The position numbers and the translations under genes are program-made. The notes under the pieces were generated by a model. That model saw only the letters and a program-made list of their open reading frames with translations, did not search any database and was not told the DNA's origin. Of a stretch of DNA of 30,866 nt, positions 11,563 through 22,301 are shown piece by piece. Positions within the stretch are counted from its first letter, which is position 1, and every line of letters starts with the position of its first letter. Origin of the DNA: Francisellaceae bacterium (GTDB lineage: Bacteria > Pseudomonadota > Gammaproteobacteria > UBA6186 > Azoamicaceae); the NCBI GenBank assembly GCA_040383965.1, contig JBEICO010000001.1, positions 1 to 30,866 on the forward strand, written 5' to 3'.

Positions 11563-13977
11563 CTAATGATGAATGGTAGTTCCAGGATCCTCTGGCGTAA
11601 CAGGAGGCTCTGCTCCTCCCGCGGGTAAAGTACCTACTGGAGGCTCAAGCTTCACAGTAATAAGCTCCGGTCGCCTGACTAACGCTAAATCTAAAACTTC
11701 ATCTATCCAGCGCACCGGATGGATCGCCATGCCTTGATATATTTCTTTCGGAATTTCAGCTAATTCACGTTGATTCTCATCCGGGATAATCACATCCTGA
11801 ATGCCAGCACGCCTTGCTGCTAATAATTTTTCTTTTAAACCGCCTATGGGTAATACTTGTCCCCGTAAGGTTATCTCGCCCGTCATTGCCACATCGCGTT
11901 TTACCGCAATACCCGTTAATACTGAAACCAAAGCGGTACACATGGCTATCCCAGCACTCGGTCCATCTTTAGGCGTTGCACCTTCCGGAACATGAATATG
12001 AAAATCATTTTTTTCATAGAAATCATCCGGAATACCCATCAAACGCCCACGGCTACGAACCACCGTCATCGCCGCTTGAATGGACTCCTGCATTACTTCA
12101 CCCAATTTACCTGTTCGGGTCACATTACCCTTTCCAGGAACTGTCATCGCTTCTACAGTTAAAATTTCACCGCCCACTTCTGTCCATGCAAGCCCAGTAA
12201 CCTGGCCAATTTGATCTTGCGCTTCCGCTTGACCAAAACGATAACGCCTAACGCCCAAATAATGCTCTAAAGAATTCGCTTCTATCGCATACTTATCTAC
12301 AGATTTATCAGTAAGGAGATCTTTCACCACTTTACGACAGAGTTTAGAAATTTCTCGTTCCAAACCTCGAACACCAGCTTCACGGGTGTAATATCGGATC
12401 ATATCAATGATCGCTTGATCCTGAAGCGTAAGCTCCGAAGGTTTTAACCCATTTTCCTGAATTTCTTTTGGCACTAAATATTGCTTGGCAATGTTCAATT
12501 TTTCATCTTCGGTATATCCCGATAATCGGATCACTTCCATTCTATCCAACAAAGGTAAAGGAATATTCAAAGAATTTGCAGTTGCCACAAACATTACATC
12601 CGATAAATCATAGTCCACTTCTAGGTAATGATCATTAAAAGCGTGATTTTGTTCAGGATCTAAAACCTCTAGTAATGCCGATGCAGGATCCCCCCGAAAA
12701 TCGGCGCCCATCTTGTCTATTTCATCTAACAAGAACAAAGGGTTTTTAACCTTAACTTTAGATAGCTTTTGTAAAATCTTCCCAGGCAATGCACCAATAT
12801 ACGTGCGACGATGCCCACGAATTTCTGCTTCATCTCTAACGCCACCCAAAGACATTCGAACAAATTTACGCCCTGTCGCTCTGGCTATGGATTGACCGAG
12901 TGATGTCTTTCCCACCCCTGGAGGACCCACCAAACACAGTAGCGGCCCTTTCATTTTTTGTACCCGAAGTTGTACCGCGAGATATTCTAAAATCCGCTCT
13001 TTAACTTTCTCAAGACCATAGTGATCTTTATTTAAAATAGCCTCTGCCCGTCCTAGATCCCCGCGAATTTTAGTGCGATGTTTCCAAGGCACCGCCAACA
13101 TCCAATCAATATAATTTCTGGAAACAGTTGCTTCTGCCGCAAGTGGCGACATCATTTTTAATTTATTAACTTCGGCTACTGCTTTTTCTTTAGGATCTTT
13201 AGGCATGCCCGACGCTGCAATTTTATCTAATAATTCTTTAATTTCTGATTTTCCAGCGCTGTCTTCGTTTAATTCACCCAATTCTTTTTGGATCGCTTTG
13301 ATTTTTTCATTTAAATAATATTCACGTTGATTCTTTTCAATTTGACGTTTCACAGTTCCGCTGATTTTTTTCTCCATATTCATTAGCTCAACTTCAGATT
13401 CTATCATCTGCATGAGCATCAGGATCCGTTTTTTAAATTCTAAGATTTCTAAAATTTTCTGTTTATCCGCAATCTTAAACGACATATGAGCCGCAATGGT
13501 ATCCACAAGTCTTACTGGATTATCAATTCCCGTTAAAGACATAACCACTTCGGAAGAAAATTTATTACTGATTTTTACATATTGATCAAACAGAGTTAAC
13601 AAAGAGCGTATCAATGCTTGGATCTCTGGATCTTCAGTTCCTTCTGTGGTCACCAATTCAACATTCGCCAAAAAGAAAGGCTCTGATTGAATAAAGTTAA
13701 TCAGCCGTCCACGCTCAACCCCTTCGACCAATACTTTGATAGTGCCATCGGGAAGTTTTAAGAGTTGTAAAAGATTTGCCACAGTACCAATTTCATAAAG
13801 TCCCGCTTCAAGAGGGGTATCTTCGGTGGCTTCTTTTTGAGCGGTTAGGAGAATTTGGCGGTTTTCAGCAATGGCATGCTCTAGGGCTTTAATCGACTTT
13901 TCTCTTCCCACAAAAAGTGGGATCACCATATGCGGATAGACAACCACATCTCTTAACGGTAATACAGCAATATCCAT
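11563..13977 (-). CDS. lon: ATP-dependent Lon protease
   Basis: [10 protein letters not shown], Walker [25 protein letters not shown] (catalytic Ser), IGGLKEK (catalytic Lys). Confidence 0.99.
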
Positions 13978-13987
13978 GGATCACCTA

Positions 13988-15271
13988 TTAATCATTCGCG
14001 TGTCGAACCGATTTATCCGTGTTTTCAAAAATCAACAACGGCTCAGAACTGCCCTCTACCACAGACTCATCAATGACAACTTTTGATACATCTTCAAGCG
14101 AGGGTAAATCATACATTGTGTTCAATAAGACCTGCTCTAATATAGAACGCAAGCCTCTTGCGCCTGTTTTCCTTTCCATGGCTTTTTCAGCAACCTTCTT
14201 CAATGCCCCTTCTCTGAATTCAATTTCGATCCCTTCCATCTCGAATAAGCGACGATATTGTTTGGTTAATGCATTTTTAGGTTCCGTTAAAATACTCACC
14301 AAGGCTTTTTCATCCAATTCTTCTAGGGTTGCCACAATCGGTAAACGCCCAACAAATTCGGGGATTAGTCCGTACTTGATCAGATCTTCTGGTTCTACCA
14401 ATCGAATACTCTCACTTAAAGTTTTCTTATCATCTTTACTAGAGATTTCTGCAGAAAACCCAATTCCCCCTTTCTCAGATCGTTGACGAATAATCTTTTC
14501 TAAACCCGAAAAAGCACCGCCACAGATAAATAAAATTCCTGAAGTATCTACTTGTAAAAATTCCTGTTGAGGATGTTTGCGACCCCCTTGCGGCGGAACT
14601 GCAGCAATGGTGCCCTCTATCAATTTCAATAATGCTTGTTGCACCCCTTCACCGGAAACATCCCGAGTAATCGAGGGATTCTCTGATTTACGAGAGATTT
14701 TATCAATCTCATCAATATAGACAATTCCAGTCTGTGCCTTTTCAACATCGTATTCACATTTTTGCAGCAGTTTCTGAATAATGTTCTCAACATCTTCTCC
14801 AACATAACCTGCTTCGGTTAATGTTGTCGCATCTGCAATGGTGAAAGGAACATCTAATAACCGTGCAAGCGTTTCTGCAAGCAAAGTTTTACCGCTTCCT
14901 GTTGGACCAATTAATAAAATATTACTTTTGCCAAGTTCAACATCGTCTTCTTTTATTTTCAATCCAGATTGTAATCGCTTATAGTGATTGTAAACAGCAA
15001 CAGAAAGCACTTTCTTTGCATGATCTTGTCCTATCACATATTGATCGAGGATCCGATTAATCTCCTTAGGCTTGGGAAGTTTTGCAGAAACCTTAGGGCC
15101 TTGTTTCTCTTCGATCTCTTCACGAATGATGTCGTTACATAATTCAACGCATTCATCACAAATAAAAACAGATGGTCCAGCAATAAGTTTTCTAACTTCA
15201 TTTTGGCTCTTGCCGCAAAATGAGCAATACAATAATTTTCCATCACTGCGGCCACTTTGTTTATCACTCAT
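13988..15271 (-). CDS. clpX: ClpXP protease ATPase subunit
   Basis: CSFCGK zinc-binding domain, [11 protein letters not shown] loop, RKTGARGLR. Confidence 0.99.
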
Positions 15272-15328
15272 GAATCACCTCTTACCTCATTATCCAAACA
15301 GCGCTGTTTTTAAAACAAGCCTATTGAA

Positions 15329-15928
15329 TCATCTTTCTACAAGGACGCTATCTACCAATCCATATTCACAGGCCGCCTCAGCACCCATAAAATTGTCTCT
15401 ATCCGTGTCCTTTTCAATCCGTTCAAGGGTTTGACCCGTATGTTTGGCTAATATTTCATTAATTCGATGCCGAAGCTTTAAAATTTCTTTGGTGTGGATC
15501 TCAATATCCGAAGCTTGTCCCTGAAATCCGCCTAAAGGTTGGTGAATCATCACACGAGAGTTGGGAAGACATCTTCGTTTGCCTTTCGCTCCACCCGCTA
15601 ATAAAAAAGCTCCCATACTGCAGGCCTGGCCAATACATAAGGTGCTAACATCTGGTTTAATAAATTGCATGGTGTCATAAATAGCCATTCCCGCACTCAC
15701 AACGCCACCAGGAGAATTTATATATAAATAAATATCTTTATCCGGATTTTCAGATTCCAAAAACAACATTTGTGCTATCACTAAGTTTGCCATGTAATCT
15801 TCTACAGGGCCCACTAAAAAAATAACCCGTTCTTTTAATAATCGAGAATAAATATCATAAGCCCGCTCACCTCTTGCAGATTGTTCCACCACAATCGGAA
15901 CCAACCCTAGGGCCTTTATTTCTGCCAT
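15329..15928 (-). CDS. clpP: Clp protease proteolytic subunit
   Basis: YINSPGG, GQACSMG (catalytic Ser), MIHQP, DTDRD. Confidence 0.99.
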
Positions 15929-15950
15929 GAATAACTCCTCCTTAATTTTT

Positions 15951-17258
15951 CTACTGACGCAAACCTTCTTGCTTAAAGAGCGCTTCCACGGAAATTGATT
16001 TCAATACTACCGAAGCCTTAACCAGAATCAAATCAATTGCTTGTTCGACTAACACAGAATTCCGGATCCCAGAAAGCAACTCCTCAGATTCATAATACAT
16101 GCTTTCAATGAAATCTGCGTTGCCGAAGGACCGTGCAATTTCAGAAATGCGATTTTTGATCCGACCTTCGTCGGGTATTAAATTTTCTAACTTAACTATC
16201 TTACGCAAAATAAGACTTAAGGCTACCCGCCGTCTTGCCTCATCTTCTAACCCATGGTGCTGACAAGTATCGTGAGCTTTGTCACCCATCTTTCGATGTA
16301 AGTCTTGATGCATCAAAGAAACTTCATGTTCGACCAACGCTTTAGGCAAAAGAATTTCGTTTAAAGCTAACAAGACATCGAGCGCTTGTTTTTTCACCCC
16401 TTCTTGAACCAAATGTTGAATTTGTTTTTCTAAGTTTTCACGAACTTTCTGACGAATGGCTAAAGAATCAGTACCTTCTGCACCAATCTTACTTGCAAAA
16501 GTTTCATCTAAAGGCGCTAATATTTGCTCAGTCACTTCCTTCACAATAATGGTAAAATGCACTGGTTTTCCAGCTAATTTCTCGATCCGCCAATCCTGTG
16601 GGAAGTGCAAGTCTAACTCCCGAGTTTCTCCCGCTACAGCTCCAATTAACCCTTCTTCAAATCCATCAATGAAAACATGCGTGCCTAATTCTACAGCAAT
16701 ATCTTGACTACTATTATTCTCATAGGGTTTACCATTTAATAAACTTGTATAATCAATCTTAAGTTGATCCCCTTTTTTAGCAGGACGATCTACTACATGC
16801 CAAGTTCCTAATTGGTGTTGTAATTTTTTCAATGCCGTATCAACATCCGCTTCCGTTAATTTGACTTCATATTTTTCAACTTGAATACTAGAATAATCTG
16901 GTAAGTTAACTTCTGGGAATACTTCAAAACTCACCACATAGCTTAAGTCTTTTCCTTCTTCATTCACATTCGATACTTGTTCTATTTCTGGTCGGCCTGC
17001 CGGTTCCAAAGCTTCTTGCTCTAAAATAGTAGGTAAGCTGGTTTCAATAATTTTGCTAATCGCCTCATGGCGAATTTGCGCACCAAATTTTTGTTGAATA
17101 AGATTTTTAGGTGCTTTCCCAGGCCTAAAGCCATCAATACGTTTATGGCGTAATACTTCATTCATACGTTCTTCTACTTCCGTACGAACTTCAGCAGCAG
17201 GAATACTAACGGTTAAACGCCGCCCAATAGGACTGGTACTTTCAACAGACACATGCAT
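15951..17258 (-). CDS. tig: Trigger factor
   Basis: GFRPGKAP ribosome-binding motif, FKBP domain ([11 protein letters not shown]); located upstream of clpP. Confidence 0.96.
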
Positions 17259-17303: not shown

Positions 17304-17388
<85 letters not shown>

Positions 17389-17402
17389 TTCTGGTAATGG
17401 AC

Positions 17403-17478
<76 letters not shown>

Positions 17479-17622: not shown

Positions 17623-18276
17623 TTAAGGTTGCTGGTCAGCAGCTTCCTGCGCTTCGCGGGCTATCCTAGCCTGGCTTCTTTCTAAACTACGAGCTTCAGA
17701 TTCTTTTAATTTTAATTGCGCTGCTTCTTCCTGCATGTCTATCGCACGCTGCCTTGATTGTTGCAATGCTTGTTGCTGATCTAATTCAGCTTGGCGTGAT
17801 TGCTCTTGGCGAACTTGCTCTGCTCGATTTTGTGCTTCGATACTTCTATATTCTTCAGCCTGTAAACGCTCCGCTAAAGCTCGATCTGATCGAATTTGTT
17901 CTTGTAATTTTGCTTCGTTTTCTATTTTTCGTCTTTGTTCCGCATGAACGCTATCTTGTTGCATTTGGTACTGCCTTGCTTCTTCACGCCGTCTGTACTG
18001 AAGATCCGATTCAACACGATTTCGATCGGCAATTGCTCTATCCCTATCCAATATGGCTCGTTGTTTATCCCATACTGCTTGGTTACGAGCTTGTTCTGCA
18101 TGGTTTCTTTCCCACTGCGCTCTATTTCGATCTTGTTCTGCCCTATCTCTTTCTAAACGTGCAGTATCACGCCGCATCTCTTCAGGCGTTCTAGGTTCTT
18201 GGAGTTCTGGAAAACACCCCGTTAAACTAATGGATATTAATGCAATTGTTAAGGATTTCAGTAAAAATTGCTGCAT
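17623..18276 (-). CDS. Orphan lipoprotein with a long charged helix and an MIU-like motif
   Basis: Lipobox LTG|C21 after a hydrophobic signal peptide; E/R/Q/A-rich heptad-like repeats; QIRSDRALAERLQAEE at residues 127-142. Confidence 0.85.
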   Translation of the reverse strand: MQQFLLKSLTIALISISLTGCFPELQEPRTPEEMRRDTARLERDRAEQDRNRAQWERNHAEQARNQAVWDKQRAILDRDRAIADRNRVESDLQYRRREEARQYQMQQDSVHAEQRRKIENEAKLQEQIRSDRALAERLQAEEYRSIEAQNRAEQVRQEQSRQAELDQQQALQQSRQRAIDMQEEAAQLKLKESEARSLERSQARIAREAQEAADQQP

Positions 18277-18329: not shown

Positions 18330-18357
18330 ATTTTACTAACACCCTAGATTAAGTCAA
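18330..18357 (-). promoter_or_regulatory. Candidate promoter for the lipoprotein gene
   Basis: TTGACT-N16-TAAAAT, about 55 nt upstream of the ATG. Confidence 0.45.
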
Positions 18358-18395
18358 CTACAAATCTGTCTGGTGTCAGATTATTTCATAAAAGA

Positions 18396-18443
18396 TGGGG
18401 TGAACGACGGGGCTTGAACCCGCGACAACCGGAATCACAATCC
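18396..18443 (-). repeat. att site: displaced 3' portion of tRNA-His
   Basis: 48 bp, 47/48 identical to 22225-22272 (T at 18415 vs C at 22244); spans the anticodon loop through CCA. Confidence 0.95.
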
Positions 18444-22112: not shown

Positions 22113-22224
22113 CTTTTTACAGATTGCTGGCTCCTAGGTCCCGCAAATATCCCGCACGGATTTTTTCGGGGTTCATTTAACGGAAATGAAATCGATGTAT
22201 GTGGTTGATTTTAAAGGAAAAATC

Positions 22225-22301
22225 TGGGGTGAACGACGGGGCTCGAACCCGCGACAACCGGAATCACAATCCGGGGCTCTACCAACTGAGCTACGTCCAC
22301 C
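22225..22301 (-). tRNA. tRNA-His(GTG)
   Basis: 77 nt including G-1; anticodon GTG; island target. Confidence 0.98.

Follow-up and report, generated by a model that had tools for sequence, protein, structure and literature searches.

The window (the whole stretch of DNA analysed here, 30,866 nucleotides) holds on its reverse strand a gene for a predicted lipoprotein of 217 residues. The gene, a promoter candidate and the parts of the protein are listed below, with the basis of each assignment in parentheses.

17623..18276, reverse strand: lipoprotein gene, 217 codons plus stop (ORF list and translation)
18330..18357, reverse strand: sigma-70-like promoter candidate TTGACT-16-TAAAAT, about 55 nt 5' of the ATG (pattern only)
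18214..18276, reverse strand: type II signal peptide, residues 1-21, ending in LTG and Cys21, the latter at nt 18214-18216 (read directly)
17635..18186, reverse strand: single continuous alpha-helix, residues 31-214, E/R/Q/A-rich (AF2, pLDDT about 95)
17836..17907, reverse strand: MIU-type module, residues 124-147 (motif-profile match, E 8e-13)
17770..17817, reverse strand: decayed second module copy, residues 154-169 (full-length alignment with two-copy members)
17647..17712, reverse strand: conserved C-terminal block, residues 189-210 (near-identical in G013, G024:C1 and G047:C1b)

The promoter candidate comes from a consensus scan in which 10/12 positions matched. Pfam and NCBIfam searches with the 217-residue protein recognised no family. 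At 11563-17258, also on the reverse strand, a series of frames fits the order tig, clpP, clpX, lon; tig alone was recognised from its translation, and the clpP, clpX and lon assignments were inferred from frame sizes and order. After this series come tRNA-Leu(tag) and tRNA-Lys(ctt), at 17304-17478. The 3' half of tRNA-His is present twice, as a direct repeat of 54 nt (18390-18443 and 22219-22272, 94% identical), and the two copies enclose a 3.9-kb tRNA-His island with a transposase fragment and Sel1-repeat genes. The sequence-only reading had placed the gene directly beside an island, and this is correct: the island is real and repeat-bounded. Since the gene is separated from the island by 114 bp and has the G+C content of its surroundings, it is not island cargo. 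Before the insertion, tRNA clusters would have been on either side of the lipoprotein gene. The DNA stretch is present in freshwater, lake, biofilm and sediment metagenomes, while RNA runs covered small shares of it only, probably the flanking tRNAs.

Signal peptide and helical stalk

The N-terminus of the protein reads MQQFLLKSLTIALISISLTG followed by C, with a basic n-region, a hydrophobic h-region and a lipobox of the form [LVI][ASTVI][GAS]C. The lipobox is L18-T19-G20-C21 and the residue at +2 is Phe, in agreement with the earlier statement that it ends LTG before the Cys and lacks Asp at +2. Asp at +2 was also found in none of the 14 members of the lipoprotein family (see below) that are listed with full sequences, an indirect hint of sorting to the outer membrane. 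The window's genome, G000, encodes LspA (PF01252, G000:C72, 137.8 bits). LspA would cut the signal peptide between LTG and Cys21, Cys21 would be lipidated, and the Phe at +2 would lead to outer-membrane sorting.

AF2 modelled a helix of 184 residues, with a pLDDT of about 95-98 around residues 120-150, so that the motif does sit inside a long E/R/Q helix as had been claimed. Charged residues make up 41% of the helix and hydrophobic ones 16%. Heptad analysis found no heptad register, the best register having 23% hydrophobic a/d positions; the helix resembles a single charged helix rather than a classical coiled coil. The C-terminus of the protein is D-Q-Q-P, without the C-terminal Lys that links Lpp-type lipoproteins to peptidoglycan. 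As in Lpp and LpoB, there are a lipobox, a small size, an elongated helix or flexible linker and a distal functional element. Unlike in these proteins, there is no heptad coiled coil (trimeric in the Lpp type), no C-terminal Lys and no globular domain, and the distal element has a eukaryote-type ubiquitin-binding pattern. A small, wholly helical lipoprotein might nevertheless be a Braun-type structural spacer without a specific ligand, in which the motif serves oligomerisation or helix stability. The low share of hydrophobic residues, both in the helix and at a/d positions, and the QQP end without Lys speak against such a spacer, and so do the relatives described below; we regard it as very improbable.

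A MIU-type module in the helix

The core of the module is Q127 I128 .. D131 .. L134 A135 .. L138 Q139 .. E142 Y143. Translation confirmed that residues 127-142 lie at nt 17851-17898 of the open reading frame 17623-18276, and they read QIRSDRALAERLQAEE. The MIU of Rabex-5 in PDB chains 2c7m/2fid reads RQKQIQEDWELAERLQREE, with 11/16 identities. The sequence-only reading had made the same count against a quoted Rabex-5 sequence, which the PDB chains bear out. In the AF2 model a single alpha-helix carries the motif, and the pattern of a MIU is present: Q(-4), D(0), a hydrophobic residue at +3, A(+4), L(+7) and Q(+8), followed by acidic residues, here E141-E142. The module of the window protein is in the middle of the helix, with 74 residues C-terminal to it, while in most relatives it is C-terminal.

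Helices rich in E, R, Q and A yield many D..LA..L patterns, and the resemblance could therefore be a chance product of a low-complexity charged helix. When the mature protein was shuffled 200,000 times with its composition preserved, two shuffles gave a match to the Rabex-5 MIU at the level of 11/16. This figure needs discounting because the comparison with Rabex-5 was post hoc. The point is settled by conservation, as described below.

A second copy of the module, residues 154-169, is decayed: Q and L are kept, but Glu stands in place of Asp, Arg in place of the hydrophobic residue and Gln in place of the key Ala. The window protein thus has one intact and one decayed copy. The sequence-only reading had also pointed to a weaker UIM-like A-L-x-x-S site, which gained no support. 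A UIM consists of an acidic run, a hydrophobic residue, x-x-A-x-x-x-S and further acidic residues. At residues ~164-174, A170-x-x-x-S174 is present, but the -3 position is Gln instead of a hydrophobic residue, and the stretch is common to only one of the three window-type relatives (G024:C1). Sitting after the decayed copy, it is probably explained by that copy and the conserved C-terminal extension behind it. The C-terminal block of the window protein reads K-L-K-E-S-E-A-R-S-L-E-R-S-Q-A-R-I-A-R-E-A-Q and has no recognisable motif; in the four window-type lipoproteins it follows the pattern S-E-x-R-x-L-E-R-S-x-x-R-I-x-R-E.

A lipoprotein family with a conserved module

The protein had been called an orphan, wrongly. 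A word-index search with the single window protein found no relatives, but whole-genome, exhaustive HMMER and profile searches gave a family of 15 lipoproteins from at least four genera and from metagenomes. The members are the window protein, G013 (P0005), G048 (P0008), G021:C10 (P0011), G024:C1 (P0012), G047:C1b and nine proteins from metagenome assemblies (P0002 and P0014-P0021). Four of them, the window protein (G000), G013, G024:C1 and G047:C1b, make up the window-type subgroup. A DNA-pattern scan of metagenomes gave 552 pattern matches, none of which was confirmed as a relative. P0003, P0004 and P0006, from the representative search, were discarded as compositional or repeat matches with ERDRA-type repeats.

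The family proteins are 140 to ~600 residues long, and the only features common to all 15 are the lipobox and the module. Each contains one to three copies of QIxSDRA(L/M)A(E/Q)RLQ(A/N)EE(Y/I), a typical copy being QIxSDRALAERLQAEEY, at the extreme C-terminus in most members. Seven of the 11 multi-copy proteins have a period of 24-25 residues. The linkers between lipid anchor and module are hypervariable in length, sequence and composition; some members have a charged helix and others a stretch rich in Tyr, Asn, His and Gln. That many relatives swap the helix for a Tyr/Asn/His-rich, probably disordered linker and keep the module is hard to reconcile with a structural spacer. The genes stand singly among housekeeping genes, by tig-clpP-clpX-lon and tRNAs in the window and by tpiA-secG, trxA-rho, aspS or pepN/gltX-cysS in relatives, and no conserved operon partner was found across the family gene neighbourhoods compared.

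Conserved columns match the ubiquitin contacts of known MIUs

The module alignment contained 28 copies (27 distinct) from at least five genera. Q(-4), I, D(0), A(+4) and L(+7) were invariant in all 28 copies, Q(+8) and one Glu were each kept in 27, and the hydrophobic position +3 was L, M or F only. In the MIU2 of RNF168, Leu449, Ala450 and Leu453 lie on the Ile44 patch of ubiquitin and Gln442, Asp446 and Gln454 make hydrogen bonds; D446A abolished binding and A450G impaired function (PMC5766498). In Rabex-5, the contacts are the conserved Asp, Ala58 to the Ile44 patch, Leu61 to Val70 and Gln62 to the backbone of Leu71 (PMC6468306). Together these contacts define the MIU pattern as Q(-4), D(0), a hydrophobic residue at +3, A(+4), L(+7) and Q(+8), and the bacterial module matches the contact residues at all six positions. 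Q442, D446, L449, A450, L453 and Q454 of RNF168 MIU2 have identical residues in the bacterial module (PMC5766498). The other two conserved columns, Ile and Glu, are identical to Ile51 and Glu65 of Rabex-5.

The conservation is at the level of the peptide. Between the modules of G000 and G021 there were nine synonymous codon differences and one non-synonymous difference in 17 codons, and two copies in G048 were identical over 20 residues with six synonymous and no non-synonymous differences. Since synonymous changes far outnumber amino-acid changes, the module is under purifying selection on the peptide rather than on the DNA. The sequence-only reading had named, as a result that would refute it, a motif less conserved than its flanking helix; the opposite was found, with a near-invariant motif between hypervariable flanks. 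With core columns invariant in 28 copies from at least five genera and an excess of synonymous changes, a chance resemblance is effectively refuted and scarcely credible. Of the proposal that the protein carries a ubiquitin-binding helix, the comparative evidence strongly supports the part that the helix is of the MIU type and not a chance match of a charged helix; binding itself stays a prediction.

A profile made from the bacterial copies only was compared with 177,635 distinct PDB sequences. At E <= 10 it matched two. Each is a Rabex-5 fragment from a crystal structure with ubiquitin, and in each the alignment falls on the MIU helix. The match ranked first but was not significant alone (E 0.17, 14.7 bits), because a motif of 24 columns is too short to reach significance. 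When the motif region was searched against the PDB as a single sequence, the only match, to the unrelated hypothetical protein 2nwi, was weak (E 2.2).

The MIU of Rabex-5 (RABGEF1; PDB 2C7M, 2C7N, 2FID and 2FIF) is, like the bacterial module, a single helix, and the two have in common Q-I at -4/-3, D(0), L(+3), A(+4), E, R, L(+7), Q(+8) and E-E. They differ at Trp55 and Arg63 of Rabex-5, for which the bacterial module has Arg and Ala, and the bacterial module also has a conserved Tyr after E-E. The settings also differ: Rabex-5 is a eukaryotic cytosolic GEF with the MIU after an A20-type zinc finger, while the bacterial helix is in a predicted lipid-anchored stalk.

The module occurs beside OTU domains in relatives

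The motif profile also matched giant proteins without a signal peptide in G007 (3500 and 1669 aa), G021 (two), G012, G011 and G047. Module-bearing fragments were found in G001 and G011 as well, and in a 400-genome sample of the class the profile matched G294, from a different family. The giant proteins with module and OTU domain span 1669-3500 aa and are encoded at the following loci.

L010:560-11062 (G007:C109) and L011:111-5120 (G007:C59): giant module-OTU loci
L014, L029, L016, L018, L020 and L186: further module-OTU loci

A module copy in the giant proteins, for example SQIESDSLLAWRLQAEEYKRV, is identical to the window copy at 13/17 positions. The module is 45-60 residues N-terminal to a Cys loop, G-D-G-D-C-F-F-H-A-V, and an H-N-G-I-N-H-F loop follows further on. 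The AF2 model of this domain had a pTM of 0.75. With the model as query, 48 of the 50 best Foldseek rows were OTU deubiquitinases, with nothing at E <= 0.001. VIA-align gave Z 7.2-8.0 over 125-149 residues with an rmsd of 3-4 A; its top 34 rows were all OTU and included DUBA, OTUD1/3/5, nairovirus OTUs, a Wolbachia OTU and Legionella Ceg23. In phmmer the Cys and His loops aligned to those of nairovirus OTUs, and the Pfam OTU match for P0007 was at E 0.01 only. We therefore base the assignment to the OTU fold on the uniform matches, the VIA Z-scores and the two catalytic loops of the domain, Cys (D-G-x-C) and His.

The giant proteins also carry ankyrin or HEAT repeats, NACHT or Lipase_3 domains, a combination typical of translocated effectors. 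Bacterial OTU deubiquitinase effectors include LotB/Ceg23, LotA and LotC of Legionella and the OTUs of Wolbachia and Simkania. Like the Legionella effectors, the giant proteins occur in Dot/Icm-bearing intracellular bacteria, and their OTU domain has a long helical insert between the Cys loop and the remainder of the domain, as in Ceg23, which recalls the Lot enzymes of Legionella (PMC9486567). A catalytic domain is absent from the window protein; it has in common with them only the accessory helix. The OTU linkage points to ubiquitin as the ligand of the module only through guilt by association, and the modules beside OTU domains are themselves predicted binders. In P0009, encoded at L011:111-5120 on the reverse strand, residues 1-170 show an H...D...S-C-G-P pattern reminiscent of a CE-clan (Ulp1-like) protease; the N-terminal 290 residues had no Pfam match, and such a protease is only suspected from the pattern.

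The module might instead bind a Ubl or another host beta-grasp protein, such as NEDD8, a protist-specific Ubl or a protein of the Atg8 type. Some OTU enzymes act on ISG15 or NEDD8, for example the nairovirus OTUs that were among the best structural matches, and the natural host is presumably a protist. This is quite unlikely, as the closest solved helix is a ubiquitin binder and the contact pattern reads the Ile44/Val70/Leu71 surface of ubiquitin (PMC6468306, PMC5766498).

The window's own genome has an OTU-family protein of a second architecture.

L166:1372-2157 (G000:C59), forward strand: P0013, 262-aa OTU-family protein (Pfam match)

The OTU match of P0013 reached 28.4 bits in two stretches, the Pfam cut-off being 23.3. 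In this protein the His loop (NAHWY) precedes the Cys loop (GDGNCLFNAF), suggesting a circular permutation. The C-terminus is a MIU-patterned helix, Q-Q-I-S-D-D-H-K-F-A-L-A-I-A-C-E-E. A strict D-x-x-Phi-A-x-x-Phi helix, with Q-Q-I before and E-E after it, was present in 28 of the 33 members of the P0013 group, P0013 included, and database relatives include proteins of Legionella busanensis and of Legionellales MAGs. No orthologue of P0013 was found in the genomes of 40 relatives, and a P0009 query found no OTU of the P0009 type in the window's genome. Together, the giant proteins and the P0013 subfamily indicate that MIU-patterned helices accompany OTU domains in two architectures.

Distribution of the module and lifestyle of the bacterium

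The window's genome is 1.38 Mb and its assembly is 100% complete. It contains four TLC ATP/ADP translocases and, in a cluster on C15, three paralogues of IcmL/DotI.

Contigs C15, C23, C41, C46 and C139 of G000: IcmL/DotI and TLC genes

A genome of this size with Dot/Icm and four ATP/ADP translocases points to a eukaryotic host, and the host association that had been suggested as a check on the ubiquitin idea is thereby supported. Judged by its gene content, the bacterium is an obligate intracellular, Legionellales-like energy parasite, presumably of protists.

The bacterial family is the sole family of its order and includes eight genomes of 0.3-0.4 Mb, none of which contains the module. At E 0.001 the module was missing from 31 of the 41 genomes of the family, and it is therefore dispensable. 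Outside the family it was found in one of ~397 sampled genomes of the class, where it was also attached to an OTU domain. A search with PF00240 found no ubiquitin gene in the family genomes. A natural ubiquitin from a giant-virus contig (P0010) was identical to the canonical sequence at 74 of 76 positions.

A tethered ubiquitin-binding helix as the likely function

We propose that the gene product is a tether, anchored by lipid, on which one predicted MIU-type ubiquitin-binding helix is presented, and give this reading a probability of roughly 0.55; the window lipoprotein is probably a membrane-tethered ubiquitin binder. Beyond the lipidated Cys21, the remainder of the protein would form one charged helix of about 27 nm that serves as a stalk. 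About 100 residues along this stalk, the face formed by Q127, D131, L134, A135, L138 and Q139 would bind the Ile44 patch of host ubiquitin, in the same mode as the MIUs of Rabex-5 and RNF168. In an obligate intracellular energy parasite with Dot/Icm, the likely role would be to engage ubiquitin on or near the bacterium, at its surface or on shed vesicles. In relatives with two or three copies, avidity for ubiquitin chains or a ubiquitin coat may be added. The mid-helix position of the module in the window protein and its absence from most genomes of the family speak against this reading.

The main rival to this reading concerns topology. By default, the lipoproteins of diderms point into the periplasm, a compartment that lacks ubiquitin; to reach the surface they need additional machinery. 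The protein might therefore be a periplasmic tether on the inner leaflet of the outer membrane, with its stalk or linker across the periplasm, the conserved helix binding a bacterial partner and the likeness to a MIU due to convergence on a one-faced binding helix. The partner could be a cell-wall enzyme, a part of a secretion system or an inner-membrane protein, in a manner like LpoA/LpoB or Lpp. The default topology, a 27-nm helix that approximates the width of the periplasm, a variable linker with a small distal binding element as in LpoB-type activators and the location of the family genes among housekeeping genes are all consistent with such a tether. However, the module with its QI..D prefix and AEEY suffix also occurs in the OTU, ankyrin, HEAT, NACHT and lipase giants, which lack a signal peptide and thus cannot be periplasmic. 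Moreover, the conserved residues equal the ubiquitin contacts in both identity and spacing. The module is also absent from the eight 0.3-0.4-Mb genomes mentioned above, and its single occurrence outside the host-dependent family is again with an OTU domain. Weakened by the presence of the module beside deubiquitinase domains in non-exported multidomain proteins and by the residue identities, the periplasmic tether is, in our judgement, unlikely.

For the proposed ubiquitin-binding tether, close parallels besides RNF168 MIU2 are the tandem helical ubiquitin binders: the tandem MIU of MINDY-1, the tandem UIM of RAP80 and the zUBD-MIU of ZUFSP. The two or three copies in relatives of the window protein, probably on one helix, recall tandem motifs that read chain linkage (PMC5824887). 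Unlike the tandem binders, which are nuclear or cytosolic, the window protein has a single intact copy and belongs to a bacterial envelope. It is possible, if rather doubtful, that tandem MIU helices serve obligate intracellular bacteria of protists as lipid-anchored ubiquitin receptors, displayed on the outer surface or on shed vesicles, with a role in masking or capture. If so, the Ile44 patch of chains on the bacterium would be capped and hidden from autophagy adaptors, or ubiquitylated host material would be captured, and the 24-25-residue spacing of tandem copies would set a preference for chain linkage. The bacterium would then have in its envelope a non-enzymatic equivalent of the secreted deubiquitinases that makes use of the same accessory module.

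Bacteria known to interfere with host ubiquitin do so by secreted enzymes such as ligases, deubiquitinases and SidE-type modifiers. A family of MIU-helix lipoproteins would mean a different strategy, in which ubiquitin at the bacterial surface is passively read or masked by a membrane-tethered protein, and would define a bacterial MIU module common to lipoproteins and OTU effectors. In the searchable literature we found neither a bacterial protein described as having a MIU nor a lipoprotein described as binding ubiquitin, and no report of a MIU attached to bacterial OTUs. The motif class is known; the lipid-anchored family and the pairing of MIU and OTU in bacteria appear to be new forms of it. 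The module can be made as a compact peptide of ~25 residues and tested directly, with loss-of-function controls at D131 and A135, and the 24-column profile is a search handle for ubiquitin-directed proteins in uncultured Legionellales-like symbionts.

One further module copy lies in the C-terminal part of a frame of >749 aa at L019 (G024:C100), where it comes after a strongly acidic run. It is followed by three tandem repeats of ~23 residues (GSMQAVLAEAKRKADLAKA), which may be WH2-like or another host-binding repeat.
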